From the NCBI GenBank assembly GCA_043228905.1, contig JBHGNT010000017.1:13950001-14014000 (forward strand): a stretch of 64,000 bases of DNA, written 5' to 3'. Of this stretch, positions 6,070 to 61,167 are shown piece by piece. Each line of letters opens with the position of its first letter. Within the stretch, counting starts at the first letter, position 1. Source of the stretch: Azolla caroliniana. Lineage: Eukaryota > Plantae > Polypodiophyta. A model generated the notes under the pieces. That model saw only the letters and a program-made list of their open reading frames with translations, was not told the origin of the DNA and did not search any database. A program made the position numbers and the translations under genes.

Positions 6070-6279
6070 ATCCTTCTCTTGTGCTTGAAGGAATACAAGG
6101 CTCAACAAAATGAACCCTACCTTCACAAGATCAAATTCCACAACATCTCAAACAATTTTGGAAATGGCTATGGGGTATAAAGATGAGTTGGAAAATTGTT
6201 TGTTTTCGATGGTTGTTGGTTCATAAAGCCATACCAGTTCATGGGTGGCGAAAAGGAAATGTAGACAAGATTTGCCCTT

Positions 6280-6396
6280 TGTCACAGACACACTAACCAT
6301 GGATTACGAAGGAGCATGGATGAAGAGGCTACAATTGATAAGTGGAACCGGAAGTGATGAGGTTAGGAACTCTAGAAGCTGTGAGCGACAAAACTA
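6280..6396. mobile_element. LTR fragment, same family as solo LTR 50327-50767
   Basis: tgtcacagacacactaaccatggattacga...ggaactctagaag aligns with the start of 50327. Confidence 0.75.
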
Positions 6397-7560: not shown

Positions 7561-9670
7561 AGCGCGAGGGTTGAGATCCTCTACTGCCGACAAACAGACA
7601 AACCCTAATCACGGTGAAAGAACAAAAGAAGAAAATAATGGACAGAGGAATGGCTAGCTTGCTTCTGATGGAGAAGCTCGACAGAAGCAACTACGCATCT
7701 TGGTCGTACAAGATGCACCAATACTTGCTTGGGCATGGCTACTGGAGTTATGTCGATGGAGCTAATGACACAGCACCCCAATCGACACATAGAGGTTTCC
7801 CAGCTTGGGAACAGGCGGCAAGTAGAGTTCTCTAATGTTTCGCATCTTGTGTGAGCAATCAACTTCTGAGCTACATTCGGGATGCAAGGACGCCAAAGGA
7901 TGCTTGGGGAAATCTGAAGAAGATTTTCATCGTGAGCACCACAACCAGAAAGCTCTAACTCAGGCAAGAGTTGAGCAATGTTCGACAACGAGATATGTCG
8001 GTGGCTGATTACACCTCTAAGATCAAGGACATATGCGATTCTCTTGCCTCCATCAATGTAAACGTCGAGGAGGAAGAAACGGTGCAGAAATGCCTCGGAG
8101 GGTTAGCGTCGAAGTTCGGAGCATTCCAAACTGCTATCTGTACGAGGGAGAATGCGCCGTCGTTTTTCAACTTACAGTCGATGCTCCTAGTAGAGGAGAA
8201 TCACGCGGGTGCGTCAACGAGTACGCACGACGACAACAAGATGTTGTACATGGTGGAAGATAGGCCCCGTGGTCGTGGCGAATGAGGCGAGTCGGCGTGT
8301 AATGGAGGCGGCTGATAGGAGCAAGATGGAAGGCATGGTCGTAATGCCAACAATAGTTCCGAACCCTTCGCAAGCAGGGGGAGTCGAGGCGGTGCGAAAG
8401 GACAGAAGGTTGAGTCGGACATCGACCTATGGCACAAGTGGTTCGGCCATGTTCACTTCCCACGGCTTCGTGAAATGCAGACGAAGAACATTGTTTTCTG
8501 TTGAGAGATCAAGCTAATTAGTTTAGTTAGTTGGTCAACCATGTAACTTCCTAGTTACCTAGATAGAATCTAGTTAGAAGTATTGACTATAACGCCTTAA
8601 CTAGGACCTTGTACTTAAGTGGGATATTCTAGATCCTCCACTCCCAAGTACATTTAATATAGGACTTACACCCTTGTACCTATATTCTCCTCACACATGT
8701 GCACCCTTGCACATGAGACCTATATATACCTCATTGTGGGTATTTTTGTATTTTTTGATGATGTTGCTAATTTAATATAGTGTTTATCATCCCCCATCTT
8801 GTGTTGTTCATAAGTGTATCTTCCTCTCTCTCTTCCTCTCACACACATACACACACATATCACATAATCTTTCGCTTAGCTTAATCACATAATTAGGTAC
8901 TAATTAACCCATAGTTAATCACCTAATTCTTAATATTTTCGGATTGTTGAAATTTAGTGGCCGGAATGGTCAAGTCTGCGAAGCCTACCAGCTCGGGAAG
9001 CAGCACCGACCTCCATTTCCCAACGAGCGTAATCGGTGTCGAAATCCGCTCGATGTGATCCATTCGGATGTAAGGGGACCGACATAGAAGGTTAGCATCG
9101 GAGGAAGCCGTTAATTCATAACCTTCATCGATGACTTCACTCGACACACTTGGGCGTACTTGATCGCAAAAAAGAGCGAAGTCTTCGCATGTTTCCTGAA
9201 GGTGAAGAGCCTTGTGGAAAGGGAAACTGGGCTAGAGATCAAGTGCTAAAGGTCCAATGGCGGGAAGGAGTACTTCTGCGACCAGTTCTCGAGTTATCTA
9301 CAGGAGGGAATTCAACGCGAATTCTCGTGTAGATACACGCCGCAGCAGAACGGTGTGGCCGAGAGGAAGAATCAGATGATAGAGGAGGTGGCAAGGGCAA
9401 TGCTTGAAGAGAAGCGATGAGAACAACTTTCTACCTCCAGAATAGGGCATTTGCCAATGGAGGAGTGTCGCCACATGAGTTGTACTTCAAGAAGAAGCCA
9501 AACTTGGCACACTTGAGGGTTTTCAGTAGCATTGCGTATGTGCATGTGCTGAAGGAGAAGCGGAGGAAGTTGGACGCCAAAGCCGAGAAGTGTATCTTGG
9601 TTGGTTACTCGGACGAACAAAAGGGTTATAGGTGTTATAACCCCCGAACCAAACAAGCTCGCGTTGTCGT
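7561..9670 (+). mobile_element. Second Ty1/Copia fragment (gag, pre-integrase, integrase), degenerate
   Basis: EKLDRSNYASWSYKMHQYL gag; LWHKWFGH pre-integrase; TPQQNGVAERKN; KLDAKAEKCILVGYS; interrupted by a solo LTR. Confidence 0.9.
8499..8935 (+). mobile_element. Copia solo LTR
   Basis: TGTTGAGAGATC...TTAATA (terminal CA mutated to TA); 5-bp TSD TTTTC on both sides; homologous to LTR 26588-27022. Confidence 0.9.
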
Positions 9671-13910: not shown

Positions 13911-15655
13911 TACCCGATTGACTAAGTATAAAGAAATATGAGAAAATACTACAATAATTATATTACATGCGTAGGGCAAGATTTGAACCATGTACCTCCA
14001 TGTTAACGATTTTAAACCTTACAATTGTACTAGCATATTATGAGTTTTAAAGTTATATTAAACTTTATCCCATATAAATATTCTAGATAACCATGATAGA
14101 AAAAGTTATTCATGCATACACACTCGAGTTAAATGAAAAGGTGTGATAGAAAGCTAATCATGCACATGTAGTGTGCATGAACACTAGAGTTAGAAAAAAG
14201 AATGAGGTTGTAAAGGGTTGTTGTCGATTTTGGGTTTTCTAAATATTGATTAAATTGATTATACTCATGGGATTCATGATTTCCTATCTCTCTCTTCCAA
14301 TGTATTGAAAGTTTGGGTTGATTTCTTGATATTCTTAATACTAATTACACTAATTCACTATACTCGTGAAATTCACGAGATTCCTACCTTTCTCTTTCAT
14401 ATTCTTATAAGCCTTAAACTTCTCCTCCTCCTAGTCCAAAACCCAAGTGGTTCCCACCCGACTCACACAAATGATCCGGCGCTGAAAGGCACGACATATT
14501 TGGTGAACCCGACGTGAAGACGGGTGGTAAGGAGATGGAGAATCAACAAGAGGCTAGCAATTATACTAATTCACTATACTCGTGAAATTCACGAGATTCC
14601 TACCTTTCTCTTTCATATTCTTATTAGCCTTAAACTTCTCCTCCTCCTAGTCCAAAACCCAAGTGGTTCCCACCCAACTCACGCAAATGATCCGGCGCTG
14701 AAAGGCACAACATATTTGGTGAACCCAACATGAAGACGGGTGGCAAGGACATGGAGAATCAACAAGAGGCTAGCAACATGATGACGATGTTCGAGCGGAT
14801 GCTACAAGAACAATGCGTGATGTCAGAGATTGCGGCGGCAGTGGAGCGGCTCGTGCAACGAAACGGGCAATTCAACGGGAATGATGTGTCGCGTTATTTG
14901 CGGGACTAAAAGACGGAGATGCTATGGTGCAGAATACCGGAAGGATTGCAAGTGATATCCTTCAATCTAGTGTCTATTGATGGGCTTCAAGGGAGTATCC
15001 ATGGGATACGACAACAAAACCTGACGTGGGCGGTGTTTGAAGAAGCATTGAAGACCATGTTCGCTATCGAGGACCCCTCGAAGGCAACACTGAGAGGATT
15101 CGAAGATTGGGTGGAAACACCGGACAAGGGGTTGAAGGTCCTCGATGTGTTTTTGGCATTCGAAAGTCGATTCGGGAGGTTGTCCGCGAGAGATCAAGCT
15201 ATCCTCGCACCAGACAAAGTGATCATGTTCTTACATGCCGTGGACATTCGGGACCGGAAAGATCTTGGAGTACTTCTAGAGGATACGACTATTGAGAGTG
15301 GCCTCACCAATACATGGGAACATGTGCGGGACATCGTTGCACGATACACAAAGAGGGGGCAATGGCTCGGTAATGAAGAAAAGAGAATTTTGGAACCAAT
15401 CTTGAGGCCAAGACCCGGATTGGAAGATCACCAACCACGACCTCGAGAGACTACGAACGAAAAGGGAATTGATGCAACCACGATGGAGTAATTGCTGAAG
15501 GAGATGGAAAATCTCAAGATTGCTATGGTGAAGAAATCAGAAGACCATCCCACGAGTTCCAAGTATATGGACCGTCGATGCATATGGTGTGATAGCACCG
15601 AACATGATCTGAAAGATTGCGATGAGCACAAGGAGGCTCTACGACGAGATCTCTG
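13911..15655 (+). mobile_element. LTR retrotransposon (probably Gypsy) 5' part with tRNA-Trp PBS and gag
   Basis: LTR end ...ggcacgaca then TGGTGAACCCGACGTGAA (14501-14518), complementary to the plant tRNA-Trp 3' end; 216-bp tandem duplication of the LTR end/PBS; gag with knuckle CIWCDSTEHDLKDC. Confidence 0.8.
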
Positions 15656-19989: not shown

Positions 19990-20840
19990 TGGCCGGTTCC
20001 GATCCTAATAGATACTCCCTTTAAGCCCATTGTAACCACCTGATTGAGGGATGCCACTTGCAATCCTTCCGATATCCTGCTTTGCAAAATCGCCGCCTTG
20101 TAATCCTGTAGATAACATGACATGTCCTTTCCATCGAACTGCTCGTTCTGTTGCATCAGTCATTCTACTACTGGCGTGGCCTCCGACATTACACGTTGTT
20201 CCTATAGCATTCGCTCGAACATTGTCATCATGTTGCTCACCTCTTGTTGATTCTCCATGTCCTGGCCACCTGTCTTCACGTCGGGTTCACCAAATGTGTC
20301 GTACCTTTCGGCGCCGGATCGTTGGGTGAGTCGGGTGGGAACCGATTTGGTTTTGGACTAGGAGGAGGAGGAATTTGAGGCAAATAAGAATATAAGACTA
20401 AAAGAGAGAGATGTAGAAAACCTCGTGAATTCCACGAGTGTATTATATTAGATTAATAAACCTTTAGAACCCTAATAGTAGATTGGATTAGATTAGGAAA
20501 GATAGATCGAAAAAAATCGTGAATCACACGAGTATAGTAAATCAGATCAATATTTAGAAACCCTATTAAAACCCAAGAATCAACAACCACAATGCATCTT
20601 TCTCATCTCCTTGTATAGTGATGGAAGATTTTAAGTATAGCTTACCACATGGCAAGCATCATGCTTTTTCTAAAGTGTTCATGCACACTAGATGTGCATG
20701 AATAGCTTTTTCTATCATGCTTTTTCTTCAAATTATAGTGATCATGCACGCTAGATGTGCATGAGTAGCTTTTTCGATACAATGTTTTCTTTAACTAAAG
20801 TTTTATGCACACTACACATGCATAAGTAGCTTTTTCTAGA
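19990..20840 (-). mobile_element. Second copy of the tRNA-Trp-primed element (LTR, PBS, gag start)
   Basis: Reverse-complement homology to 14100-14990; PBS at 20275-20292. Confidence 0.82.
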
Positions 20841-22945
20841 ATTTATACTTGAAACACGTTCGCGTTCAGAAGTGGAAGGATCGCGCATTACACTTTTAGA
20901 TTCCCTTTATAGTTACACAATTTTAGCCTGTTGTGAAATATGACGTGCACCAGTATCACATGATAAACCACAGAGGGTGAATTTATTGATTTATTAATCC
21001 GATACATCTCTATACCTAGAGAACATGCTATTTATTGGAGAAAATATAAATGTACTAGATTTATTCTTGCAATGTTTACAAACAATTATACTCACCCAAT
21101 CCTTAAATGCAATGAAATATTCCGATAATGCCTTGTACGAAGATGTTATCAGATATTCTTGAGTCACTTGTTCCCACGATAAGCAACCTAGTTGCTTCAT
21201 CATCACTTCTTGTATTTTCATATAGACTTTGTCGCTGAAAATTTATAAACCAACATTAAAAATTCATTTCTTAAAACAAGATAAACCATAAAAAATTTAG
21301 TAAGACCTTGTTGAACTCTGTAACCATTTCCTCTAGGCTCAGCTCCTTTCCTACAACTCTTAAAAGCACAGATATAAGAAGTTGCTCATTTTTTATCCCT
21401 TGCATTGCACTCCATAAAGACAGCTTCATATCATCTGCCACTTCCTCAATGGTAAGCTCAATCTTCTTGGCAGCTGAGCTCTTTAATTCTAATTGAGGGT
21501 CAACTTTTGACTTCTTTTGTCTTTGACCCTTCACTTCCTTATTCTCCCACATCGTAAATATTTGATCTTAAAGATCCTAGACTCCTCCATCCCTAAATGC
21601 GAGTTGAAACCACGACTCATACTTTCTGATTCCATCAGACTTCACCGCATCGTCCACCACAATTCCCACTTCGTGGAGACATTGACTCGTAGAGCTGGAT
21701 ATAATTTCGCTCCAAATTTGGTTTTCCCGTCAAGGTACTCGTGGTGAAAAAATCTAATGCGTTCGATGGAGGACATCTTCTGTCGGTAGTCATTGTCGTT
21801 ATTGTGGTCCCATGCTAACAACTTCGTCTCCTCAGTTGTTAGCCCCACATAAATTTTGCATTCCGCATATTTGAAGAAGTACGTTGTGGGATGCTTGCAG
21901 ACTAATTGTCGTCTTGCCTCCGCCGAGTGAGATCCTCCAATCACAAAATAATTGTATTAGTCGTGCTTCTTAATATCAAAATCCTCGAGCTTAGAGCACT
22001 CAAGAGGATCCACCATTACAATAAAAGGCACGATTGTTGCATGAGGGTTGATTTTCATCTTCTTCTTTAAATTTTGGACGTGCAGCTTATGTGGTTCTTT
22101 GATCTCCAAAGGGCGATGTCCTGTATTCTCATCTAGAGGGGGGAGATGAATATGGGTTATCGGAAGGTTAAAAACTTACCCCTTCCGCACAAGTTTTCTA
22201 TGTATTGTGTCCCTTCTAATTTTATTTTGTTCTGATGACAACACACCAGATGCAAACTCTGCTCCTTGTATAGATTGAGCCTCATCATCCTCTGTTGAAC
22301 TCGATGACTCAGAATTTGACATTTTCGTCACCTTCTTTTTTGGAGGCCTAGACTGCACCGCAGATTTCCTTATTGGTGCTTTAATAGGCGATAAGGAGGC
22401 TATCTTCAAATTAACATGACCTTGAATATATGGCCTTATTGTTGTTATTAATTTAGTACTTGTCTCAATAACACGTCGGAAGGATTCTGGCCCGCATGAA
22501 TCCTTCAACAAGTAGTCTTCTGAGACGATCATCTTTCGGACTCCTTTTGTACAGTTGACTAATACAATCAAATTAGTTGAGTCCGTGTCTTCATAGTCCA
22601 ACCGCAAGATTTTGCCATAGCTAAATGCACGATCTTGAGCAAGCATACCACGTCCAACCAGTCTAGTAACTAACAATACTATTTCTTTTTCGAGTCTACA
22701 AATTGCAATGCCCACTCAAATCCAGTTAAGTCTCTGTCTAACTGGCCCTCACTCCCTCCAACTGCGACAGATGTTTTATGACTAACCTCGTCAAACGGCT
22801 ACCTCACGACTTCGTCTTCAAACATGAGTTTCTTTCTCTTTTGTGGATATTTCACAACAAGGATCTTTGTGGTGTCTGGAGGTGAGCTTTGATACTTAAT
22901 CCGAATTCTGTTGAGTGGCAACTCCTCCTTAGGGTCAGTCGACTT
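20840..22945 (-). pseudogene. Intron-containing gene with a ParB/Sulfiredoxin-like domain, disrupted
   Basis: Reading through stops: VFNLPITHIHLPP..RPLEIKE..HVQNLKKKM..IVPFIVMV..YFVIGGSHSAEARRQL..CKIYVGLTTEETKLLAWDHNNDNDYRQKMSSIERIRF follows the ParB N-domain pattern; GT..AG intron at ~21307-21236 and a GTGAGT donor at ~21095. Confidence 0.6.
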
Positions 22946-23642
22946 GCATGAAATAATACAACAGATGAACCTAAACCTATATTCTCTCAAATGAAAATCT
23001 ATTGTAGTCTAGAAAATGCGAATACAAAAAATAGTTTGGCCTTATGAAGCTCTTGCTTGACCAGTAGTGTATGGGACCTACTTAAAGGATGTAGTCATAA
23101 GATAAAAAACCATAGCGAAAGGCACTAGAAAGGGAGTTGAGATAAGGGATTAGTGAAACCTAAACCTATATGCTCCTTACTTCAATTCAAGTATTGTTTT
23201 GTCCTCATTTAGTCTTATAGTAAGCACATTCGTAGTAAAGAAAGATTTGTATGGGGTGTCAAATTATATACAGTATGCAGATCGGTAGTATGGAATGCCA
23301 AATCAACAATCCAGTATTGTTTTGGCCTCATTCCACTGTTACAGTTAGTACAAAACTAGTAAGGTGGTTAAATGACATGAAGAATAGGAGAAAGAGGATT
23401 TGAAACCTAGGGACTAGAAAGAGGAAAATGTATATTTAATGTCTCAGAGTCCACCGGACACTAAGATTAGTAAGATTTTGGTATCCCTAGTAGTGTCTAA
23501 ATATCAAATTTCAGACCCAAATTTACCGTATTTTGACCTAATTTAGAATTTTTGAACCTAATTTTACTACTTATTTTTTGTCTAATGCCCGTTTTCGTGT
23601 CTCTGATGTCCCAAGTTAGATTAGTAGTGTTATCTGGGCCAC

Positions 23643-24412
23643 TATTCGATACATCGTATCGAGTTAGTGGTGACAATTCGTTACGTCGTATTGAGTTCTA
23701 ACCCTAAGGAGCCCAACTCGTTACGATGTATCGATTTTTAGCCCTAGGAGCCACAACTCGATACGCCGTATTGAGCTATGACCCCCAACTTGGTACGCCG
23801 TATCGAGTTTTAGCCCTAGGAGCCACAACTCGATACGGCGTATCGAGTTATGACTCCCAATTCGATACGCCGTATCGAGTTTTAGCCCTAGGAGCCACAA
23901 CTCGATATGCCGTATCAAGTTACGACCCCCAACACGATACGACGTATCGTGTTTTAGCCCTAGGAGCCACAACTCGATACTCCGTATCGAGTTATGACCC
24001 CCAACTCGATACGGCATACCGAGTTTTAGCCCTAGGAGCCACCACTCGATACGTCGTATCGAGTTATGACCTCCAACTTGATACTACATATCGAGTTTAG
24101 CCCTGGGAGCCACAACTCGATACGACATATCGAGTTGTGACTCCTAGGGCTACAACTCAATACGACGTATCTAGTTCTAGCCCTAGGAGCCACTAGATAT
24201 GGCGTAACGAGTTCTAATACGTAACTCGATACATGGTAACGAGTTCTAAAACTGAACTCGTTACATCGTATCGAGTTGAGTGTCAGAACTCGATACATCA
24301 TATATAGTTCTTGGTCTTGGATCTATAACTTGATACATCGTACCGACTTGTGACCCTCACGTTGATACAATGTACCAACTTCGGGCCATAACTCGATACA
24401 ATGTATCGAGTT
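23643..24412. repeat. Array of ~22 palindromes AACTCGATAC-N3-GTATCGAGTT (72-bp dimeric unit in the core)
   Basis: Palindromes start at e.g. 23755, 23787, 23827, 23859, 23899, 23931, 23971, 24003 (alternating 32/40-bp spacing). Confidence 0.95.
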
Positions 24413-25289
24413 ATGGATCCAGGACTTAGAAGTGGGCACGCAAGTTATTCTAAAAGAAATATAAAGTACGTAGATAGGACTATGTTCGTACAGTTTAGGG
24501 TTTAGATCCTACCTAGTGTCAAAATGGGTAGTCTTTTTGCTTGACATGATGATCGTGTCGGTTCGGGGATGTGTGAGGTATCTTGGGAGTCCTCGCGTCT
24601 GTGCTTTCACACTCTGGAGAGTGGTTATGCTCAAATGCGAGGAAAGAAAAAGAGAGGTCGGTTCTATTTATGGGGGGGGAAGGGACCATAGTTTAAAAAC
24701 TAACCACAGTTAGAATTAAATGCCATATAGTGCCTTTAGTTAATTTTATTTGAATTTGTATTTATTATTATCATAACATAATGATTATCTTTATACTTTA
24801 TGTGTAATATGTTCATTATGATCTAGTAGTTATGATTTCATACTTATTATGATTTAATACATGTGCAAGGTTACTCCAATGATTGAGTATACTTATCTAC
24901 ATTTATGGTAGTCTAATGATTTTGATGTGCAATAAAGTAAGAAATTATTTATAGAAATTGAGAACATTCACTAATTGGGTGAGGATAGTGGTATTGTGCA
25001 ATTATGTCACAAGGACACGTGATCAATGAATAGGAAGTTACATAAATGTTTTTTTAAAACCTACTTAAGGCACGTGACCATATAAGGGGGACAAGTATAT
25101 ATAACTACGCATAAGTTTAATTATGATTTATATTTTTAATATTTAACCTCTTTTAAATTTTTATTTATAACTAAAAAAATATATACAAAATACATATATA
25201 GTTCCTTAGAATTCTATTTGTAGTTTAAGCATGTCTTACAATTTGTATGCTTAGGGAGTGAAATATAAAGGATATTAGAACCTCAAACA

Positions 25290-26587
25290 ATGGGAACTAA
25301 TTCACCCTTTTCTGTTGAGGAATATCAACTGTCATCGGATTCCTCACCTTCTTTGGGGTTTTCAGTAGAAGAATACCATTGGTCTCAAGATTCTAATTTC
25401 TCCGTTGAGGAGTATATAATCTTCGACAGTCCAATCAATACGCCAAGATGCTATGAATTCTCAATTGAAGAGTATGACCCATACGCGGACTCAGGTGAGA
25501 ATGTAGGTGATTGTCAAAGTTCCGAAAGTATTTCTACCCAACAACAGAGAGCAAATGTGCGCCAAGAGGAGGACACACCAATATCAGCTAAGGATGACAA
25601 TAAGTCAGTGAGCCCCCTATTTTTCAAAAGGGTCTCAAGACGTATTAGTCGAGAAGTTTATGATTCCTATAGATCGGAAATGTCAACTTGTGGCGACAAG
25701 TATGTCACCTATAGTCAGTTCACAAAGGTTGTGGACATTGCACTTTAGTAATCTTATTATACCTCGTAAAGTATGTATGGGGTATTGTTCAGTATGTGCA
25801 AACCTGAAGAGTGTGTGTAAAGGGGCAAAGACAGTGATAGAGAAGGAGCTAAATAAGAAATTGTTACAAGATCACCGAGACGCCCAAGCATTAGAGCGAA
25901 AAAGAGCTATGCACCATAGGGAAAAGTCGATAAACAATCCAGCTAACTACATGTGTTTAATGATAGATGGAATGGACCAAAAGAAGACGTGTCTACCTCA
26001 TCTTAAACATCTTCCTAAAGATGTCAAAAATGATTGTCTCGTGCAGATGCACTTGGTGGGTTGTTTAGCCTATAATGGAAGTGTGAAGCCTCATGTCTTC
26101 GTCACCTACCCAAATGTCCACAATGACCCTAATTTAACAGTCACTATGATTCAAAAAGTATTGATGTCTTGGGGGCAGTCTTTGCCGCCGGTTTTATATA
26201 TTCAACTAGACAATACTGCTCGGGAAAACAAAAATTCTACGGTGTTTGGTTATCTAAGTATGATGATGAACCAATGAATTTTTAGGAAAGTGAAAGTTAA
26301 CTTTCTATTGGTTGGTCACACACATGACCATATCGATCAGATGTTTTGTAACTTCTTTAGGCAGTTATCACGATATGATGCTTTTACGTTACCTAAGTTG
26401 TTCGACATCATTCGTGATGCATATACACCACGCCCAATCATGGAACACTTGAAGGAAATATATGATTTCAAGAGATACAAATTAGATGGTGGTGAGCGAA
26501 ATGCCAAAGTGTTAGCGCCATTAAATAATATAAGTTTCAACCACGTATTCTTAATAAATAAAAATGATCATAGTGGTTGTACATTAC
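25290..26587 (+). pseudogene. Sola1-like DDD transposase, frameshifted and cut by a Copia insertion
   Basis: CSVC, then MIDGMDQKKT, LYIQLDNTARENKN and FLLVGHTHDHIDQMF; frameshift near 25725, stop at 26275; LTR inserted at 26588. Confidence 0.7.
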
Positions 26588-29160
26588 TGTTGAGAGATCA
26601 AGCTCAACTTAGTTGAGTTAGTTAGTCAACACATGTAACTTAGTAGTGACCTAGATAGAATCTAGTTAGTGTACAGTTGACCATAAAGCCTTAAATAGGA
26701 TTTTGTACTTGAGTGGGATACATTGTACATCCACCACTCCATGCTTATTTAATATAGGACTTACACGTTGTACCTATATTCTCCTAGCACATGTACACCC
26801 TTGCACATGAAACCTATATATACCTCATTGAAGGTATTTTTGTATTTGATGATGTTTTATAATATACACTCTAGTTTACTCATCCCCCATCTTGTGTTAT
26901 TCATAAGTCTCTCTCTCTCTTCCTCTCACACACATACACAACCATATCACATAATCTTTCCCTTAACTTAATCACATAATTAGGTAATAATTATTCCTTA
27001 ATCAATTACCTAATCCTTAACATGGTATCAGAGCATGTGGTTTAACATATCCACTAAGCCCACCCGACTCTTTGTGATTGTGTGTTTGAAATGCCGATGA
27101 CAAATTCCGGCCACCCGCTACCGTAGTGCCACCACGTAGCACATCTATGATTTGATCCACTACGGACGGCAATCTTGGCGAGAGAAAACCCTCCTTCGTT
27201 CTTCAACCTCCAATCGATGTTATTGGTCAAAGAAAACCACGCTCGAACCAAAAGCAAGGCACCGGAAGGACAAATGTTCTTCTCAAATTCGGATGGTGGT
27301 CGGGGAAGAGGTCGTGGCGGTAGAAGAGAAAGCCATCGAGGAACCTTCGAAAGAAGGGGGAGCTTCCAAGCCGAACAAGGTTGGCAAACGAGGCCAACAA
27401 CTTGCAATTATTGCGGCAAAATCAGCCACTATGAGGCAGAGTGTCGGTAGAAAAGAAGCGAGTTGGCGTCGACAAACCGACAACTCACAAACTACGCCAA
27501 CAACTCCGAATACGAGGATTACGGCGGACTATTCGTAATGCGGCATAGAGCGAACTCTATGACGGCCTTTGACTCCGCAAGCATCTCCAATCCGGAAAAC
27601 GTGTGGTTCGTAGATTCCGGCGCCTCACATCACATGACATCCCACGAAGAGTGGTTTCGTGATCTACGAACTCCAGATCGACCCGGCTTCATAGAGAAGG
27701 GAGACAACACCACGCATCCCATTCGGCACATCGGCAATGTCCCATTCGCGAAAGAGGGCGAGCAAACTTGCATCAAGAATGTCTTGCACGTGCCCACAAT
27801 AACAAAGAATTTGGTGTCGGTCGGCCAAATCGTGGAGCAAGGCATGCAAGTCCGCTTCAACAAAGAAGGATGCTTCATCGAGAAAGATGGTCGAGTCGTA
27901 GCTAAGGGTGGGCAGAGAGAAGGCCGAATGTTCATCCTCAATTCGAACGAGGTGAAATCGGCAATGTACGCTAAAGGTCTCAAAAACGAGACGAACATCG
28001 AGTTGTGGCACAAAAGAATCGGCCACATCAACCTCCAATGGCTCCGAGCTATGAAAACAAAGGGAGTCTTCATTGGACTTCTGACATTCGAGTCGAAACG
28101 AGTCAACCGAGTATGTGAAGCGTGTCAACTCGGCAAACAACATCGACTCCCATTCCCGAAGGAGAGCCATGAGAGCAAAGGCCTCCTCGATGTCGTACAC
28201 TCGGATGTATGGGGACCGACTCAAACATCAACGATCGGCGGATGCCGATACTACATAACCTTCATCGACCACTACTTGCGCTACACGTGGATCTATCCGA
28301 TGAAGAAGAAAAGTGAAGTGCTCTCCCACTTCCAAAAGCTCAAGGGGCAAGTCGAAAAAGAAACCGGTCGGCACATTCGATGCCTACGATCGAATGGAGA
28401 AAAGGAGTACTTCTCCGATGAATTTACCTCCTACCTCCAAAGTGCAGGCATTCGTAGAGAATTCTCGTGCCGACCTACACCCCAACAAAATGGAGTTGCC
28501 GAAAGGAAGAATCGGCAAATACTTGAGGTAGCATGCGATAAGATGTATGAGAAGCACATGCCGAATTTCTATTGGGCTGAAGCGGCATCCACGACCGTCT
28601 ATCTCATGAACCGGTGCACCACCAATGGAGTCCATGAGCTAACTCCACACGAGCTCCTCGTCAGAAGGAAGCAGATCCTATCGCACCTGAAGGTGTTCGG
28701 AAGCATTGCGAATGTACGCATCCCGAACGAACAACGACAAAAGCCTAACGCGAAGTCAGAGGAATGCATCCTCATAGGATACTCATCCGAGAAGAAGGCA
28801 TACAAGTGCTACAACCCTTCTACCTGAGCGGTTCGGGTAAGTCGAGACGTAGTCTTCGACGAGTCCGCATCCTGGTACGCACCAAAGACAACTTCGACTC
28901 CGACTACGCTCGACCCGGAATCCGCCGAACAAGAGGTAGAAGATGGAGATTGCTTCGAACACATGTTCGAAGAAAGTCCGATTACGGCAAAGCCTAGTGG
29001 GCCACAAGAGCCCCCACGCGACCCAAGCACGTCGCGGCCAAGTACAACTTGGACAAAGGCAAAGGTAGGATGTCCGAATACGAAGTCGACCACCCCGAAG
29101 ACAATGATTCGGATGGATCGGCTCCATCACTAGACAGTGAGTTTGGTGTACCCATCATAC
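26588..29160 (+). mobile_element. Copia element 5' part: LTR, PBS, deleted gag, protease, integrase
   Basis: LTR 26588-27022 (TG...CA); PBS TGGTATCAGAGC 27023-27034; WFVDSGASHH, LWHKRIGH, CEAC, HSDVWGP, TPQQNGVAERKNR. Confidence 0.93.
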
Positions 29161-35924: not shown

Positions 35925-36296
35925 TGGTTCAATTAAAATTAATTACAACATGTTAGTTATCTAAATAAGTATTTGAGGGTGTAAACTTAGAGTTGCTTGA
36001 ACTATTCATCTCTCACTCACATCATGGTTTAAGTAAAATTAATTACAACATGTTAGTTATCTAAATAAGTACTCAAGTCTGTATTCTTAGGTTTGTTTGG
36101 TCCATTCATACCTTATTATCGAATTAAATGAGATGGTGTAATTAGTATCATGAACCCGATGAAGGTTCTCCTTTGAGAGGGACTGCATTTATGGTTTAAG
36201 GAAAATGAAGATGAAACCTAAAGTTGTAAAACTATGAACAATTCAACCAATCTTTTTTTTTTGTGACTAAGGTTTAAAAACACCTTAAGTATATTG

Positions 36297-39200
36297 GGAA
36301 GAATGTATGCCCAGGAAATGATGGATTATCACTAGAATTTTTTTTAGAATATTGGGATGATATAGCCGATGTTTTCACATCCTCTTTACAAGAAGTTTTT
36401 AAATTGGGAAGGACGCCTGCTGAATGGAATGAAGGAATGGTTTATTTGATTCCAAAATTAGAAGGTGCGGTGGATGATATTAAGAAATGGAGGCCTATAA
36501 CTCTTTTAAATATTGTATATAAAGTTTATGCTAAATTATTAGCGACACATCTGCAACCTTTTCTTCCACATATTGTGCATAAAACTCAGACAGGCTTTAT
36601 ACAAGAAAGGAGTATATTTGATAATATTTTCATGTTTTGGGAGATGATAGCAATAGCGCAAGAAACAAAACAAGAATTGACAATGTTGCTTTTGGATTTT
36701 GAGAAAGCATATGACAAAGTCGATTGGGATTTCTTATATGAAGTTATGGGTCGTCCAGGTCTTCCAAGTGACTATGTAAAAGCTGTTTTTATATTATATA
36801 ATTCAGCAACTAGTCGTGTTCTTGTTGGAGGAGCACTATGTAATACTTTCCCGATTACTAGATCGGTGAGACAAGGATGTCCTTTGGCTCCATATTTATT
36901 TCTATTGGTGGGAGAAGCCTTTACTGCATTCTTACATAAGAATAGGTTACCTATTAAAGGAATACAGTGGCCAGGTGTGGAGGAGGTTGTGTTAGACTTT
37001 GAATTTGCAGATGACACATCACTATATGTTGTAGGAGATGACATAAATCTCTGTAATGTGCAAAGTGTGATCCATGATTTCTGTGATGCTTCAGGCGCAA
37101 TTATCAATTGGCATAAATCAGTGGGATTTTGGGTTGGGGAAAGTCTTACTCCTACTTGGTGTCTAGACAGTGGATTCCGTAGGATACCAAAGGGCTCTCC
37201 TGTGAGATATTTAGGATGCCAAATGGGAATTAATCTTCCTCCAGAAGCTCATATACAACCATTATTGCTTTCTTTGAGGAAGAAATTGATATTTTGGAGT
37301 TCTAAGAATTTGTCACTTGTTAGGAGGCTAGTTATTTCTAATCAAGTATTACTCTCCTCAATGTGGTATATTCTATCCTCTTGGTTATTCTCCAGTTCAT
37401 TGTTATCAAAGTTACAGAGATTGATTAGGAATTTTTTATGGGGATCTACTGATTTTAATTATGTTAGACCAAAGGTAGCTTGGAAAACTATTATAGCGCC
37501 GACTTCTCAAGGGGGTTTAGGTTTGGTAGATCCATTATTGGCAAAATTTATTGTATGAGGATTACTACTAGGAAATGAGCCGTGGACGATGCTTCTTCAA
37601 TTGAGAATGAAAGAGGTCTTCCCAAAAACTGGAGGTGAATGGACAATGTCTCTCCGATGGTGGTTTATTCCTAACTTTCATTCGCATAAGATAGTGTTTC
37701 AAAATGATAGATTCTTCGCTGCGATAAAGCGACCCTGGTGGTCCATAAAGGATAACTTGCAACAAGTCTGACCCACTTCGGTAGATGAATGGTTACATCA
37801 GCCATTGGTTTGGAATCCTTTATTTCTAGACGTTGAAGGGTCTATGTTGGGAAGGAGAGTCGGATTAAATTGGGCTCAAGTGGACTCATCTTTTGCCTCA
37901 TCACTAGGTAATTGGCAACAGTTTGTTCACAACCCTACTCATATTATTCAACAAGAATGTAGAGGAATAAGAGGAGGAAAGGTGATAGTTGATGAGTTAA
38001 GGAGGTTGCAGTTACCCTTGCAGGATAATATACTTTCTAATTGTCATAAGTGGATGGGATTATTTTCGAATTTTCAGGTTTTACTGGGAGTTCGTGGCCT
38101 TAGAGATGATGGTACTTTCTTAATTTATGATGTTCTACAGAATGGACGATTATGGATGATTAACTAGGAAGATGAATGGTTGGCTAAGGCTATATTAAAA
38201 CCCATTAGAATTCTAGCTAAGGTAGATAAGGGTTGGGTTCTTGACCCTAATCCTAATGATGTGCATCCATGGTGGGATCTATGGGTAGTGGGAAAAAAAC
38301 CATTATGTGAATTGGATTGGGACCCAGGAGAATGGAAGTGGCTACCTACATCATATTCTGGGGAGGATGTTAGGCCAATTCCGTTTTTTCAGTATTCCGT
38401 TCGATTGGGAAGGGAGATGATAAGACGTAGGGTACCCCATTGGCCGACAGCAGCAACAAAATGGTTGACTTATAATGTGGATCCTACTCACATGACAAAA
38501 TTTTGGAAATGGCTATGGGCTATGCAAATTCCAAAGAAGATTATTCTATTTAGATGGTTGATTGTTAATTATGCGGTTCTTGTTAGAGCTTGGATGTATT
38601 GTAAAGAAGTGGATAAGATGTGTGATTTTTGTGGTTTAGAAGTGGAGTCTCTTCATCACCTATTTTGGTCATGTATGGCTACCAAATTGGTTTGGAAAAG
38701 ATTTTAACGTCTCTTGCATGAGGTTTATGGATCTAGAATATATAAATGGGGGGCAGTTATGTGGGCTAATATTAAGGGTGAGGTACAAGATTATGAAAAA
38801 GAAAATGTTAACTTTGCATTATATACAAGAGGTCGATATGTTGAGGAAGTGTCACCATACATGCCTATTAATTCAGTCCAAAATGGCGTGGTTTGGGAGA
38901 CGATTAGTTCAATAATTATATGGGTTTTGTGGACTAGTAGATGTCGAAGGATATTTCAGCAAATTCAATGGAATGTTGTGGATGTAGTCAAGGAGATTTG
39001 GATGACCTTAGTGCATACACTAAAAGGAGAATATGATGCTACCAAAGGTGATCCAGATGTATCTTTTGAAAGCAAGAGGTTTTTAAGAAGAGATGGGAAA
39101 GGATAAAGGTATTCTGCATGGTTGATGGTGGTATACGTTGGAGGTATCAGCCACCACTCTGGGTATTTCTTCCACAAACATGAGGCATGTGTCAATGTAT

Positions 39201-43723: not shown

Positions 43724-46700
43724 TTAAAGTTGAGGAGGACAAAGTTCAAACAATGGAAAGAATGGGCGAAAATATGATCCAGATAATATTTGTCGAGCAA
43801 GAACTTCATTAGCATGGTCAGTAAGATGAACCCCATCCCAATTGATGTATTCTGATGGATTTACACATGACAATGCAGAAAGAAATTGACCATGCACATG
43901 GTTGCTCATACCACATTGTACTCCAAAGTCAAAATTGTGTTTGCCACCAACTCCACAACATGCACGAGTCGTGTAGTTAAAACCTATATATCAAAATTTT
44001 AATTATTACAAAATTCACCATATTATATTTCAAGACCATACCAATTATATTAAATTGAATCAAATCCAATTATAGTCAAATGCCTATAATGTGTTACACA
44101 ATATTTGTCAAATGCACTATACATATAGTACATGTAATATGTTCAACTTGAATATTCCTTTTGAGGAAGGATTGAATCATATGGTTTGGCAATATTGTAG
44201 TAGGTAAAGGATGATAATCACAACATCTAGATTAAGTGAAACTAGTAAAAAAGTGTGACCCATGATGTAGAAACTTTTTTTTTAATACATTCTAGTTCTG
44301 TTTGTTTGCCGATTATGTGTATTTGACTATTTTTATACGTAGATATTGCTTTGCATTACTATCTCGAGTGAAAACATTACAACATTAATGGCAAGATTGT
44401 TTAATTGGTATTGCTCTTCAAATCACGAAATAATGTGTGAAACCCTAGGGTTTGGTGGTGATCATATATTTGAGCAATATGTTACTTGCAGTACACATAC
44501 AAAAAGTCATTGTACAAGGACGACCCTTTATATCATCTACGAGTGGTAAATGGGAGTCTGAGGATACCTTAGTAGTTATAATGAGTGCTAGAAGGAGCCA
44601 AAAGATGCCTTAAAAAGTCACAAGACTACACTGCAAGTTGGAGAATACTATAGCTTTATCATAGATGTGGCGTATACTACACAAGTTAAATAATGAAGAC
44701 TATACTTTTTACAAAGTTGTAATGCGTTATAGCTAAAATAAAAAAAAGTAGTTGTGTCCAAGACATTGCTCTTCTTAGCACCTTTACGTGGTTTTGTGGC
44801 TTCATATATAATTGAGAATTGAAGGTACTGACAAAGACATTGTATCAATGGTGAATGACGAGTTTAGGATAATGAAGGAAATTAGTAATTGGGTGACAAC
44901 TTTGATGACATATAAAAAGAAGGTAAACAATGCAACTATTGGATAATGGGATGTGTCGATAGGTGTCAATTAGTGTATGCATGCTAAATCGTGGCAAGGT
45001 AGGTAAATGAGCATCAGTAATGACTAGAGTTAAACCCATTACTCTATAACCAACAAAAATGACACTACACTTGTGCAAGGGAGGATGCTATCTACGAAAA
45101 TTGAAAGGGCTTTTTAGAAACACAAGCAATTTAATACTTATAGTGGTCCCACTACTACCTAGCCCTTTAGTCTTTAAGTTTAGAGATACATAATGACTTT
45201 GGGAACCATATGAGAATGAAGCCTATCACACAATTGAGAAGTCTTAGAGAGAATGGGCTACAACACCTTTTTTTGTGTAAGAATTAGATGCAATTAGGCA
45301 GGTATACATACCATAGCGAGGGGCATGTTTGATCATGGAGTATTGGATGTGAAAAGTGTCGACGAATACAATGTCGGAGGTCAGTAACACAGATTGCAAG
45401 CGCCGGAGCTGCTCTCGAAGCAGACGATTGTAGAGTGCGACGGCTTCATTGTAGGGGCGAGCACAACCACACTCGTCTATGTCGCTCATCTTTATGTTGG
45501 CCGCATACTTTGTGAGTGTCATAGGCATGCACCCTTGTGGCCCCAAATCAAGGACCCAAATCCTCCTAGCCCCTTCATCATATAGTGCCTTACGAAAAAT
45601 AAAAATTCCCAACATGGTTGGATCGATTTAGGTCACATCCAATAAGGAAGCATTGGTGACATAAAAGACTTATATTTAAACCCACATTATGATCACATAA
45701 TAAGCTCACACTATACACATTTGTCATAATAGTGATGTCTTTCTTTTTTACTTACTTTAGTGAGTGACTTGACATTTAGCTTGTATTAGAGGAATGGGGA
45801 TTATTTATAGGCCAATCTCTATTAATTCTCTAGGATTTTTTTTAAATCTTTTGGCTGTTTTTATGGACCTAAGTTCCCCTAAACTTTGCAATGAAACGAA
45901 GGAAACTCTTTCAGAATGAATTTCAGCAATCTAGCAAGAAGCTGAAGATTTGGCCCCTTTGTTTTTTTTGTGAAGTATTCTTAGCTCTAAGTTTCTAGAT
46001 TTCTGAGGTTAAATCATAACCTATAAAGCTTCAGCCGAACCATTTACATTTGTATCTAAATTGCATCAAGATTCGGAATTAGACTGGTTTTCATTCGTGT
46101 GTGTATACCGTGATCGCATCGCTTACGGCATTCACTATCTTCGGTAGATAGCTCTTGATTTGTTCGGCGTCCATCTTGAGCTTCATGTAGGCATAGCTGA
46201 AATCGTTGCCTCCGATCCCGAGTATGTAGAGACCGTCCCGAAATGCCCTCACCTCCGGCAAATAATTCGTCCGACCTCCTCCTCCTGCACAAATTGATTC
46301 GATCAAATTTCATGGCATTCACCCGAAGAATTCATTCGATGAATATGGCCATTTCATCCTTCCTCCACAATTTGTTCTCTTAAATTGCACCTCTGGGATG
46401 TAAATCCATTCATCCGAGCCCCCGGATCCATGTCTAATGAATGGAAACATACCCTGAATCGAGAGAGGAGCCCAATCCGATCCATTTTGTATTCGTAACA
46501 AAAAATGGAAAATTACCCAATTCATTGCGTGCTCGGCGGGCCGCAACCTGCAAGACTTGTTGCTTGAAGACTTTGAATTGATTGACTTGAATCGCGAGGC
46601 TCATGGGGCTGATGAAGGAGCCGGGCATGGCGGTCGCCCCAGACGAAGCGAAGTTGGCCCCATCCGAGAAGTTGGAGTCCACAGATTGAAGGAAAGGGCT

Positions 46701-47437
46701 GAGGAATGACTTGCCAAGCCCCTGGGCTGCAAAAATCACAAAGCATTTTGGGAACAATATACTTACACACACACCCCTAAAGATTTATCAAAATCATAAT
46801 GCCTTCCATTATCTACATATATATATGTGTGTAAATGTTTCCATTATATATGTAAAGTTTTCCATTATATATGTAAAGTTTTCCATTATATATAGTAAAA
46901 TTTTCCATTATATATGTAAAACTTGTTTCATGGGGTACCGATGAAGTCGATGAGAAGCCTGCCATCGCTGAAGCGGTTCGCGGGCCTGTGGAAGAAGGTC
47001 TCTCCGTACGGGAACTGCTCCGAATGGGCGATGAATGGGAAGGCCGCCCGGACACCTCCCGTGTCGGACGAAGAATCCCCGAAATTGAATATGGCCGGGA
47101 ACGCACAGCCAGAGGTACCATGGCCATACCCATTGGCATCCTTACTACTATGCCTACGATTAATGCCCGACAATGAGAATGTCTTCATTGACGATCTATC
47201 ATCGCCATCATCATCATCTTCGTAGTTGATCGCCTCATTATCCATATGTATCATGGCATTGTTACTACTACTAATCACTATATTCGCATCATTGATGATT
47301 AGCATTACTAGTAGTAAGGCTATTATTGTATGTATGCTTAATCCATTGCATAAGTAGCTTGTAGTAGTTCCCCATGAGCTATGGTAGTAGCTAGCTGCCC
47401 TGTGACACCTATTGGAAGTTTCATAATCATGGGTCAT
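43724..47437 (-). CDS. GDSL esterase/lipase, 5 exons: 47437-46939, 46726-46517, 46284-46109, 45588-45312, 43983-43724
   Basis: SGNH blocks FNFGDS, GANFASSGA, GIGGND, WDGVHLT; GT-AG introns with consistent phases. Confidence 0.93.
46833..46920. repeat. 21-bp minisatellite (x4) in GDSL intron 1
   Basis: aaagttttccattatatatgt repeated. Confidence 0.85.
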
Positions 47438-48021
47438 TCTTCTATCCAATTAAATCTATGGTTTTGAATGATGGCCCCCCCTAAATTAAGTAGTGCTTCT
47501 AGTATAGAAGAAGAGGAGGAGGGGAAGATGATGAGGAAGAAGAAGAAGCAAGGAAGAACTGAGTCAATGGGGAGTGTTTTTACCATGTGAACTCATTCAT
47601 GTGCTTGAAGAAGGTAGGTATCATTTACTATGCACATGAACTAGGTTATTATTACACTAAAGAGTAAGTACTTCGTTGTCTAGTCTTCACATTATTGTCA
47701 TCCCAAGAGCCCGTGACAATCACAACCTATACATATATACCAAAAGAGTAGTCTGGTAGTTAATCGAAAAACAATTATATTTGTGGAGATTGTCGTCATG
47801 TCTGTACTTCAGGCCATGGCATTGTGGCAACATGCAATATATCTAAAGGGTACTTTGGTAATTGGGAAAAGATAAGGACATCTCCTGACGCTATTTGTTG
47901 TTCAAGTTGCACATGATTTCACGACTATATATGCGTGTGTGTGAGGGTTTAATAGCCAATGTATAACCATTACACGACTACCGGGAATAAAGTTAGATAG
48001 GGTATGGGGGCTTAGTAACCA

Positions 48022-52911: not shown

Positions 52912-53984
52912 CTCTAGACTCTCTCTCTCTCTCTCATATTTGTTGTTTCTCTGCAAAACATGTTTATGAGGGACTTCATCAACCACATACTCGTATTTCA
53001 AGCCATTATTTTACTACTAAGCCCCTTTTCTTAGGATCAGATGACTTCACATGTACTCTTGCTTGCAACTTACATGTTCTATCTTAAAATCTTTGTCATG
53101 TATTGTGTTGAGAACTTCATAGGAACCTATGGGGAATATCTACAATGCAATCTATGAATATGATATTAAGAAGCTCATATGAATCCCAAATTTGGTGCAC
53201 ATGTAACTGTTCTTATAGTAGTACAACATGTAACAGTTCTTATGGTCTCTTGTATTTGCAACCTAAGACGTAGAAGTAATTAATGGTTCAAAACCACAAG
53301 TAACCTATAAATCCCATTTTTCTAGAATAATAGGATTTGGTAACAGGAAATAGTCAATCATTGGGCGAAGGGTTCATGGTAATCTTATTCTTAATGGAAT
53401 GATTGGAGGTGTGTATATGCATGAGCATGCTGATTTGTGTGAAACCATATGTCATGGACTCTATTTCTTCTAATTTTGAAATGCTTCGCTGTTTTTAAAT
53501 GGTTTGGTGGTTCCGTTTAGGCTTGAGCTTCCTCAGCCGGTTTGAGCTCAATTAGGTTTGGCTTGGGCCTTTCGAAACAGGTTAAGCCTTAACTAGTTTA
53601 GAGATCAGTTTAGTTTAGGCTTGACAGGTTTGTCTTGGACGAGGTCAAACTGGTTAACTGAAACCTAACCATTGCCGATTCCAAGTCGGGATTGACAAAA
53701 CTTGGGTTCGGGCCCGAACCGAGCCGTGAAACCGTGGTGTAACCGGCTCGGTTTATGTAGTTCTAGAGATAAGCAAATGGCTCGAGTTCGGTTCAAGGGT
53801 ACCGTTTGCTGCTTCTCAACCCCAACAATTCCTTCTTTAAGTTTCTGTTGTAAAGAAACACCTGCCAACATAACCCTAATACTTGAAGAAAAATGAATTT
53901 GAGGAACAGATGAGAAGCATTGGATGATTTGCTTTGATTTGATTTAATTATATTTGATCTGATATGGTTTGATTGTATTGAAGA

Positions 53985-59941: not shown

Positions 59942-61167
59942 GAGCAAGACAAGAGCAGCCCTGTTCTACTCTTTGAGTTTCCATGCTAATATTTATGTGA
60001 ATCAATCAATAGTGGTCATTCATTACTCTTGTGTTTTTTTCTACACTAGTCCAAAGTGTCCATAGGATGCAATCGATCCGGTTCGAAACCTCGGATCGCC
60101 CACAAGAGACTCTTCTTGTTACGTTCGGACTCGGTGAATCAATATGTATGTTACACCCCTAGATTATGGGGGGGACAAGTACACACGGTCGAGACACCAA
60201 TTAGGACACAAATCGTAGTTATATCTCATTATGAATACACAAGATTACAACCGTCCCAAATTAGGATAAACCACTCGGAGTTGGGACTGAGTCGGAACAA
60301 CTCCCTGAAACCACCATAAGGGGGAGATGGCAAAATGATTACACACTTCTTAGATCTGAGATGAGAATGAGAAAGTGTGAGAGAATGGATATCAGAAAAT
60401 GGTAATGTGGGAATAGTTACACATGAGGAAGGATCCGCCCTATATAGGCCAAATATGGTCGTTGGGTGGTCCCCTTGGGACTGCCCATTGAGACTATGTT
60501 ATCCCATCCCAAGGTGGAGCCTTCTTTGGGACTGGGACTGGGACTAGCGCCCATGATGAGTCCCAACTCACATTGGGACAACTTATGGACACCACAATGT
60601 ATCCTACACATATCCGATGTCCACAAGATGCTTTCTAGTTCGAAACCTCGGATTGACCACGAGAGACTCTTGTTACATTTGGACTCAGTTTGGTTTTTCA
60701 ATACACTTGGATTACATACATGCCTTTCTCTCATTTTTCCTCACGCACAAATTCGTATGTGTATGAAGCTTCAAATTTTTAAACATTCAAGAGTTTCAAT
60801 AATAATCATACCTTCAATTTAGTGAATCTATAAGCTATAAGTAGAGTTTTTGTGGGGCCGGTTGAAGTCTATTAAATGGCAATGCCTCAAAATGGAATGA
60901 CCTTGATGTCTTATGGAAAAAGTGATGGACAATAAGCTTGATGATTTTGTCAACTATTCTTTAATTATTGCGATATGTGTGCCAATAAATGCCGTGACAA
61001 CCCTAACATATAATCATTGCTTCCCATGTCAATGAAACCCACAATAATTAAAGAGTCTAATATGTACTTCTATGATGTATCGTTAAAAGTTTCAAGAGTG
61101 ATAACAAATTTCTATACTAAACAATTATGTCACTTACATTTCTTGTTATATGAAAAGAAGAATTTTC

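Follow-up and report, generated by a model that had tools for sequence, protein, structure and literature searches.

A dead, probably Sola1-type transposon copy in Azolla caroliniana points to a ParB-methyltransferase that may bind and mark its own element

The window, a 64-kb stretch of Azolla caroliniana DNA, holds a dead copy, shortened by an internal deletion, of a high-copy cut-and-paste transposon, likely of the Sola1 type and likely belonging to the fern. Taken as a whole, the reading that explains the data best, which we give an even chance, is that the family carries, beside its transposase, a ParB-methylase that binds and methylates the element itself. A dimer of this ParB-HTH-methyltransferase would dock on phased palindromes in the predicted first intron of its own gene and would methylate the element's own DNA, likely at adenine, and this methylation would likely shield the shared promoter region from host silencing. 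The protein could also work in trans, both on related copies and on deleted ones such as that in the window, because the core of the site is common to the families.

On the methyltransferase side, the copy ends in an intact terminal inverted repeat (TIR) of 36 bp (AACACGTTCGCG..., 20853..20888, plus strand), which aligns with those of L002-L005, L007, L010 and L018 at 0 mismatches, and an inverted copy is present at the opposite end of L001 and L002. In three runs, the flanks turned unrelated exactly at 20853 in 23, 36 and 43 contigs. The original prediction had retroelements cutting both ends of the element. This stands for the right end, where a copia 5' LTR (26588..27022, plus strand, with a TG start, a primer-binding site at 27023 and a second LTR copy at 8495-8936) lies outside the element and interrupts the transposase, but not for the left end, where the perfect TIR match and the sharp flank divergence led us to reject such a cut in favor of the element's own terminus. 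As the distal ends of L001 and L002 matched nothing anywhere in the window, the remainder of the element is absent from it. Among the relatives, whose elements measure about 7.6-8.6 kb, TIRs of 33-36 bp starting with AACAC occur at both ends of L026, L028, L043 and L059 and are nearly complete in L002; the TIRs differ between families and lack the palindrome motif. A candidate 4-bp target site duplication (TGTT, in L026) was seen in one of four two-ended contigs, though these, being collapsed, may combine the ends of separate copies; in the flank symmetry analysis, 4 bp was reached in 103 of 5000 shuffles, and 6 and 9 bp scored higher. No relative appeared in the viral contigs searched.

On the plus strand, the 5' part of a DDD transposase of the Sola1-like DUF7869 type (25290..26587) has a stop at 26275 and is cut off by the copia insertion. 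The plus-strand transposase gene noted earlier is borne out by a DUF7869 match at E 8e-49 and by the motifs IDGMDQ, QLDNT and GHTHDHIDQ. Across loci, the D of IDGMD[QK] and that of QLDNT are each conserved in 13 of 13 and that of GHTHDHIDQ in 14 of 14, and the three probably form the catalytic triad. The relative P0203 has an open transposase of 917 aa, and that of L002 bears two stops near its 5' end. No mention of DUF7869 was found in the literature searched.

We found the DUF7869 transposase head-to-head with the ParB gene in each of the 12 related contigs that reach over 2 kb beyond the ParB match on its upstream side and could therefore be tested; the loci are collapsed short-read contigs of one assembly series and not independent copies. 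The palindrome sits between both genes in 11 of these 12, and L059 has both genes without the upstream array. The three parts thus co-occur as had been anticipated, and their placement inside the TIRs of L002, L026, L028, L043 and L059 bears out the proposal that they make up one DNA transposon. Two loci with a tandem orientation, L033 and L036 (the latter 99.9% identical to L031), were rejected as a different layout, being nested insertions in the transposase of another element. In Riccia sorocarpa, R1sor_010795 (DUF7869) and R1sor_010796 (ParB plus N6_N4_Mtase) bear consecutive locus tags, and the contig recorded for each has the same length.

The copy was correctly called dead, with diverging genes: the ParB gene has five stops and two frameshifts, and the transposase one stop and one frameshift, together with a 471-bp deletion at about 25654. 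Alignment to L002 (gap at L002 6347-8403) revealed a 2,058-bp internal deletion that took all three methyltransferase exons, and it is this deletion, not a retroelement cut, that shortened the ParB gene. It joins the subterminal non-coding DNA (20889..21078) to intron sequence at about 21078, with a short shared TAAACA at the junction. C>T changes in the ParB gene affect 15 of 110 CG and 13 of 95 CHG sites versus 31 of 520 CHH sites, an excess indicating that host 5mC acts on the element. The CG sites of the array carry transitions too, four C>T and three G>A among 42 half-sites, and this dead copy therefore gives no hint of protection.

The minus-strand gene begins with a predicted exon 1 of 35 nt (24513..24547; MSSKK..., GT donor), and the same 35-nt first exon, in frame with exon 2, is found in L001, L002 and L010; a clear first exon emerged in the clade of the window copy alone, other clades giving only candidate basic mini-exons. 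The pseudogenized exon 2 (21308..22943, minus strand) covers an N-terminal beta domain, the ParB/Srx domain and a predicted HTH DNA-binding region, and is 86-94% identical to L002 across two main segments. Exon 3 (21096..21234, minus strand), a helical region, matches the L002 exon at 6191-6329 and has 73% identity to residues 495-539 of Ceratopteris KP509_1Z236600; the nearest named protein is from Ceratopteris (72%). In L002, four GT-AG introns yield an open frame of 934 aa. No splice joints were present among the related contigs displayed, which looked like DNA. A length-restricted search returned no homologues of 1051-3000 aa, and a profile search gave one, of 1825 aa.

The ParB domain went undetected by Pfam and PDB sequence searches and was found only by structure. 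The model of the homologous region of L002 (pLDDT 83.5, pTM 0.76) retrieved Noc/ParB in Foldseek at E 2e-5, and the VIA structure comparison aligned 99 residues with Caulobacter ParB at 2.1 Å (Z 10.4), so the model upholds the ParB/Srx fold predicted for this spliced gene. The fold appears to cover the ParB N-domain and the DNA-binding domain, as the model superposes over two domains on KorB (the best fit, 189 residues at 4.5 Å rmsd) and Noc; the Noc DNA-binding domain alone reached only Z 4.3, and HTH_ParB matched 1 of 60 members (E 0.03). The homodimer prediction scored 0.54 against 0.00 for the best control, with contacts falling in the N-domain. Of 30 solved dimers 21 reached the dimer mark, as did 17 of 29 eukaryotic ones and 0 of 23 monomers. 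The runs share at least 43% of contacts at pLDDT of at least 75, and the predictor may have drawn on solved ParB dimers.

This architecture, the N-domain dimer contacts and the invariant G, H and N of the nucleotide pocket would suit a CTP-dependent sliding clamp that loads at the array for transpososome assembly or for retention or segregation of excised copies, with the methylase secondary. The nucleotide motif of bacterial ParB is of the arginine-rich GERR type. The great majority of fern loci have GGSHS instead, and Chara, Riccia and other relatives GG[GNT]H[ST], so CTP-clamp chemistry, raised in the original prediction, is left without support. Moreover, no ParA-like gene turned up in the complete elements inspected (ORFs of L002), the array lies kilobases away from the TIRs, and the fused methylase would go unexplained; we regard such a clamp as very unlikely.

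The accessory protein is not ParB alone, as first described, since intact relatives encode a ParB-HTH-N4/N6 methyltransferase fusion. It is this fusion that favors self-marking over segregation, for which we found no support, or transpososome assembly. The earlier description lacked the DNA amino-methyltransferase domain that the intact gene encodes at its C-terminal end. Intact relatives match PF01555 at E 1.3e-10, and in spliced L002 a DIPY motif at residue 651 precedes DLFSGTG at 811, a permuted order that places the putative catalytic motif IV ahead of the SAM-binding motif I, as in the beta class. DIPY was present in 45 of the 49 loci covering the motif, and distant relatives carry DFPY, DLPY and DAPY, which retain D, P and Y with the first P swapped. 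Amino-methyltransferases have the canonical catalytic motif (D/S/N)PP(Y/F), usually DPPY or SPPY. DIPY is atypical in this respect, which counts against taking either activity or target base as assured. Both domains are under purifying selection: dN/dS came to 0.02-0.09 in the methylase, where 9 of 22 pairs could be estimated, and to 0.02-0.05 in the ParB core, where 8 of 22 could. We lean, with some reserve, toward an active enzyme that marks element DNA. The best solved relatives of the methylase are CcrM, M.RsrI, M.MboIIA and DpnA, ahead of N4C enzymes, and its predicted target is rather more probably N6-adenine than N4-cytosine.

The array consists of 21 palindromes, AACTCGATAC-N3-GTATCGAGTT, at 23643..24412 inside what is predicted to be intron 1 of the ParB-methyltransferase gene, counted at up to 5 mismatches and found nowhere else in the 64 kb; about 22 regularly spaced copies between the genes had been noted. 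Spacings mostly alternate between 32 and 40 bp, with others of 37, 39 and 63 bp. Across families, spacings lie near multiples of 10.5 bp, which suggests helical phasing; with 54 spacings taken at family level, the periodicity is strongest at 10.45-10.65 bp (R 0.58; 0 of 2000 nulls). Saturated families still share the core YCGATRC-N3-GYATCGR, and the 48,689 bp lying upstream of ParB genes hold 213 matches to it versus 23 in 280,999 bp elsewhere, 12 of these 23 belonging to one nested element. The conserved core and the phasing make the parS-like use of the array, as initially put forward, plausible, and we judge it quite probable that the ParB-methylase binds the palindrome. Covariation between site and protein was discarded as evidence, as the five residues that separate the GATAC and GATGC groups (27 rows) are all explained by clade.

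Binding at this place might instead serve autoregulation: the ParB-methylase would restrain transposase expression as a repressor akin to KorB or as a timing switch, and any methylation would tune its binding and not oppose host silencing. The array lies in the predicted intron of the gene itself, close to both divergent promoters, phased sites fit cooperative binding or looping, and KorB, the best two-domain match, is a ParB-family repressor. However, a repressor needs no methylase held at dN/dS below 0.1, and the plant accessory proteins with proven self-binding activate their own elements, as far as the consulted part of that report goes (PMC5735166); we hold autoregulation to be unlikely. 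Some DNA transposases bind internal repeats. By that general precedent, the transposase or a host factor could be the one that binds the palindromes, while the ParB-methylase marks target or host DNA, protects excised ends or, with its unusual DIPY, binds without catalysis. Against this stand the conserved methylase motifs and the ParB genes on unrelated Plavaka elements, which in the available text also adjoin inverted-repeat arrays (bioRxiv 2025.02.11.637652), so that the array seems to travel with ParB and not with one transposase; this option strikes us as decidedly unlikely.

The self-binding, self-methylating ParB-methylase has forerunners, and the claim of a new transposon system was overstated. 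According to the accessible parts of the respective sources, Ectocarpus Sola1-1_Ec32 has an opposite-strand gene with ParB-like and N4C/N6A methyltransferase domains, for which its authors propose self-binding and self-modification (PMC12477816), and the Plavaka (EnSpm) elements PAG2/PAG3 of Bostrychia and other red algae carry a ParB accessory gene beside tandem inverted-repeat arrays, the suggestion there being that its protein binds the element that encodes it and modifies it, with an N6-adenine methylase in the same cassette (bioRxiv 2025.02.11.637652). The TE-borne ParB-methylase design is thus known from algae, there as proposals. Sola1-1_Ec32 shares the Sola1 gene pair, compared here by description and not by protein sequence, and has similar termini, AACCG against AACAC in the fern family, those of Ectocarpus Sola2-1 reading GGCGG. 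It differs as a brown-algal element of 21.5 kb with a 282-bp imperfect TIR, as opposed to about 7.6-8.6 kb and 33-36 bp in land plants, and the available text mentions no palindrome array for it, unlike the phased array of the fern family (PMC12477816). In Plavaka, as described there, the fusion partner of ParB is a 2OG oxygenase, the methylase is encoded apart from it, fused to SET, and the transposase belongs to another superfamily. Our literature searches returned no land-plant description of a ParB-methylase transposon.

Arabidopsis VANDAL elements encode VANC, which binds tandem motifs in non-coding parts of its own element, introns included, and is in the part of the report consulted a precedent for an intron array; VANC is an unrelated protein without a methylase, and its motifs are same-orientation 9-mers that change fast between families, whereas the fern palindrome core is conserved across them (PMC5735166). 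Marchantia DN4MT1 is likewise a prokaryote-type amino-methyltransferase in a land plant, although, from the excerpted source, it is a TSPPY N4C enzyme encoded by a host gene and acting genome-wide in sperm, while the fern protein has DIPY, is fused to ParB and is transposon-borne (bioRxiv 2021.02.12.428880). With bacterial ParB/Noc/KorB and parS, the modeled protein would share the N-domain and helical DNA-binding fold, clustered palindromes and a predicted dimer; the fern gene differs by GGSHS, the fused methylase, the lack of ParA and its splicing.

The window copy, being dead, contributes little beyond the array and one TIR, but the family offers many copies, a spliced gene whose frame is open, and a target site that is defined, conserved and apparently phased with the helix. 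That the predicted marking results in anti-silencing we consider slightly short of an even bet. A bolder and doubtful version would have a ParB-derived clamp load on the intron array, spread and write 6mA or 4mC that blocks 5mC silencing, with one site code licensing related copies and the high copy number making the element one of the main contributors of amino-methylated DNA to fern genomes; land-plant transposons would then run a bacterial-style epigenetic circuit addressed to themselves. If true, self-marking would mean that a transposon writes a DNA mark other than 5mC in land plants, with VANC no longer the sole anti-silencing route there, and the protein could serve as a site-directed methylation tool.

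The product of the plus-strand gene in the window belongs to DUF7869 (E 8e-49) and has three motifs with conserved aspartates, in agreement with the original prediction of a DDD transposase. The further proposal that this gene, a divergent ParB-like gene and the palindromes between them form a single transposon held among its relatives. In a metagenome scan of the best 80 of 161 loci, on collapsed short-read contigs from a single series of assemblies, the transposase was divergent from the ParB gene in 12/12 loci that extended beyond the ParB match by more than 2 kb on its upstream side, and the palindrome lay between the genes in 11 of these 12 testable loci (locus L059 was without it; L028 and L029 had one copy each). 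The divergent pair recurs across families between which the ParB proteins are only 56-60% identical, and in Riccia the genes R1sor_010795 (DUF7869) and R1sor_010796 (ParB-methylase, a predicted ParB-DNA methyltransferase fusion) carry consecutive tags. The relative L002 matches the window at 90-96% identity across the genes and the end, and measures about 8.6 kb between terminal inverted repeats (TIRs); its transposase has two stops near the 5' end, and the relative P0203 is open over 917 aa. The TIRs of the relatives are 33-36 bp long and start with AACAC, and a 4-bp target site duplication was found in 1/4 two-ended contigs, these being collapsed short-read contigs, while the symmetry of the flanks gave 4 bp no clear preference over other lengths. 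The element is likely a member of Sola1. In the flanks of 37 TIR ends, the fifth base outside the TIR is more often G than expected (17/37, p 8e-6 uncorrected), which suggests a target-site preference, and elements of the group are nested in each other, within the methylase intron or the transposase gene (L009:3280, L036:4040, and L033:3960).

The window copy is dead, as had been surmised: its ParB gene contains 5 stops and 2 frameshifts, its transposase has a 471-bp deletion, and an internal deletion of 2,058 bp, at about 21078, has removed the methylase exons. Retroelements had been said to cut both ends, but this is so only at the right, where a copia LTR interrupts the element at 26588; the left end is intact, since 20853-20888 matches the TIR of relatives perfectly and 23, 36, and 43 contigs from three runs depart at exactly 20853 into unrelated flanks. 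A host 5mC signature is present in the dead copy, with C>T changes in the ParB gene at 15/110 CG and 13/95 CHG versus 31/520 CHH sites. The left flank holds a 63-bp tandem repeat beside a retroelement with a second copy in the window (20670-20836 and 14135-15002), and the core of this flank, 20741-20775, shows very high depth in four of four runs. Long ORFs at 53982-56657 (+), 58286-59965 (-), 45247-47449 (-), and 36278-39103 (+) appear by eye to be two PPR genes, a GDSL-lipase gene, and a LINE.

The regular 23-bp palindromes claimed between the genes are real, with 21 copies at 23643-24412, spaced mostly by 32 and 40 bp, and none in the rest of the 64 kb, at up to 5 mismatches. Upstream of ParB genes, the core YCGATRC-N3-GYATCGR has 213 occurrences in 48,689 bp; the remaining 280,999 bp contain 23, of which 12 fall in one nested element. 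In the relatives, site spacings group near 32, 41, 51, 63, and 72 bp, and the periodicity that fits best is 10.45-10.65 bp (R 0.58, reached by 0/2000 uniform nulls), each spacing being counted once per family to give 54 values that, the families being related, are not fully independent. The window-copy array showed no clear protection from transitions. The dyad site is conserved and phased and lies well away from the TIRs, which are themselves variable; this pattern suggests a dimeric protein distinct from the transposase as the binder. That the palindromes are bound by something other than the ParB-methylase, or that the latter has an unrelated role, seems to us quite unlikely. A predicted 35-nt first exon precedes the array in the window and in the relatives L001, L002, and L010; in these three relatives it is in frame with exon 2, and other clades gave candidates only, so that the array is likely intronic in the ParB-methylase gene.

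The minus-strand gene had no significant match in Pfam or PDB sequence searches; its 49 close homologues include Ceratopteris richardii KP509_1Z236600 at 72%, which makes a fern host likely. A first structure model, of a 517-aa relative (pLDDT 63), already matched Noc and ParB. The second, of 317 residues of L002 built from 60 sequences (pLDDT 83.5, pTM 0.76), matched Noc and ParB at Foldseek E 2e-5 to 3e-4 and, by VIA, ParB over 99 residues at 2.1 A (Z 10.4), such that the ParB-like domain first proposed is borne out by modelled structure. The VIA alignment with KorB covered 189 residues at 4.5 A, from the N-domain through the DNA-binding domain, and the Noc DNA-binding domain alone gave a Z of only 4.3; KorB-like autoregulation by a putative array-binding protein is a reading we consider unlikely. 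The homodimer prediction passed (0.54 versus 0.00 for the best control, at least 43% of contacts common to the runs, pLDDT at least 75) a mark attained by 21/30 solved dimers and 0/23 monomers, and the pass may reflect memory of solved ParB dimers. In most loci the nucleotide-site motif is GGSHS, in place of the arginine-rich motif of bacterial ParB, and CTP clamp chemistry is putative at most; such a clamp serving assembly or segregation is, to our judgment, the least probable reading. The N-terminal beta domain of the homologue P0004 (residues 38-152, window about 22400-22740) was confidently modelled, had weak PH/SANTA-like matches only (Z up to 5.3), and evolves faster than the ParB core. 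The part of P0004 homologous to window 21308-22260 (residues 200-517) lies closest by features, among ESM Atlas clusters, to fungal DUF3723 proteins (score 0.96); DUF3723 genes are common in fungal Starship elements, and so may encode a ParB-like accessory of this kind.

A profile search returned 601 relatives at E up to 0.001, and PF01555 (N6_N4_Mtase) was C-terminal to the ParB region in 6/24 proteins scanned, proteins of Chara braunii, Ginkgo biloba, and Riccia sorocarpa being among those bearing it. With four GT-AG introns removed, L002 has an open frame of 934 aa, in which DIPY is found at residue 651 and DLFSGTG at 811; its last exons match PF01555 (E 1.3e-10) and also phage DNA methyltransferase families. 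The solved enzymes closest to the family profile are CcrM, M.RsrI, M.MboIIA, and DpnA, with N4C enzymes next. DIPY is conserved in 45/49 loci, and dN/dS is 0.02-0.09 for the methylase (9/22 pairs estimable, the rest being saturated or lacking coverage) and, for the ParB core, 0.02-0.05 (8/22 pairs estimable). Two relatives differ in architecture: P0174 has a SAM domain and the helical region, and the Chara protein P0053 is a doubled ParB-methylase. We propose, with about an even chance of being right, that the predicted fusion docks on the palindrome array, from where it would methylate the element near the shared promoter region, and that this methylation would oppose host silencing.

Related arrangements are described in several sources. 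In Ectocarpus Sola1-1_Ec32, a gene running opposite to the transposase encodes ParB-like and N4C/N6A methylase domains (PMC12477816); the terminus of that element shares AAC with ours but reads AACCG instead of AACAC. In Bostrychia Plavaka elements, a ParB-2OG gene adjoins tandem inverted-repeat arrays, and self-binding is likewise proposed by the authors (bioRxiv 2025.02.11.637652). A chlorophyte Dam of another methylase group is fused to ParB-HTH (PMC4738411), VANC proteins offer a tested precedent (PMC5735166), and Marchantia DN4MT1, with a TSPPY motif, is a host gene (bioRxiv 2021.02.12.428880); PMC5751038 and PMC9033089 provide background on Sola. No land-plant description of a ParB-methylase transposon was found in the literature searched, mainly of freely accessible papers. 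The element is real and adds a new representative from land plants to a kind of transposon so far hardly described, with a putative function.
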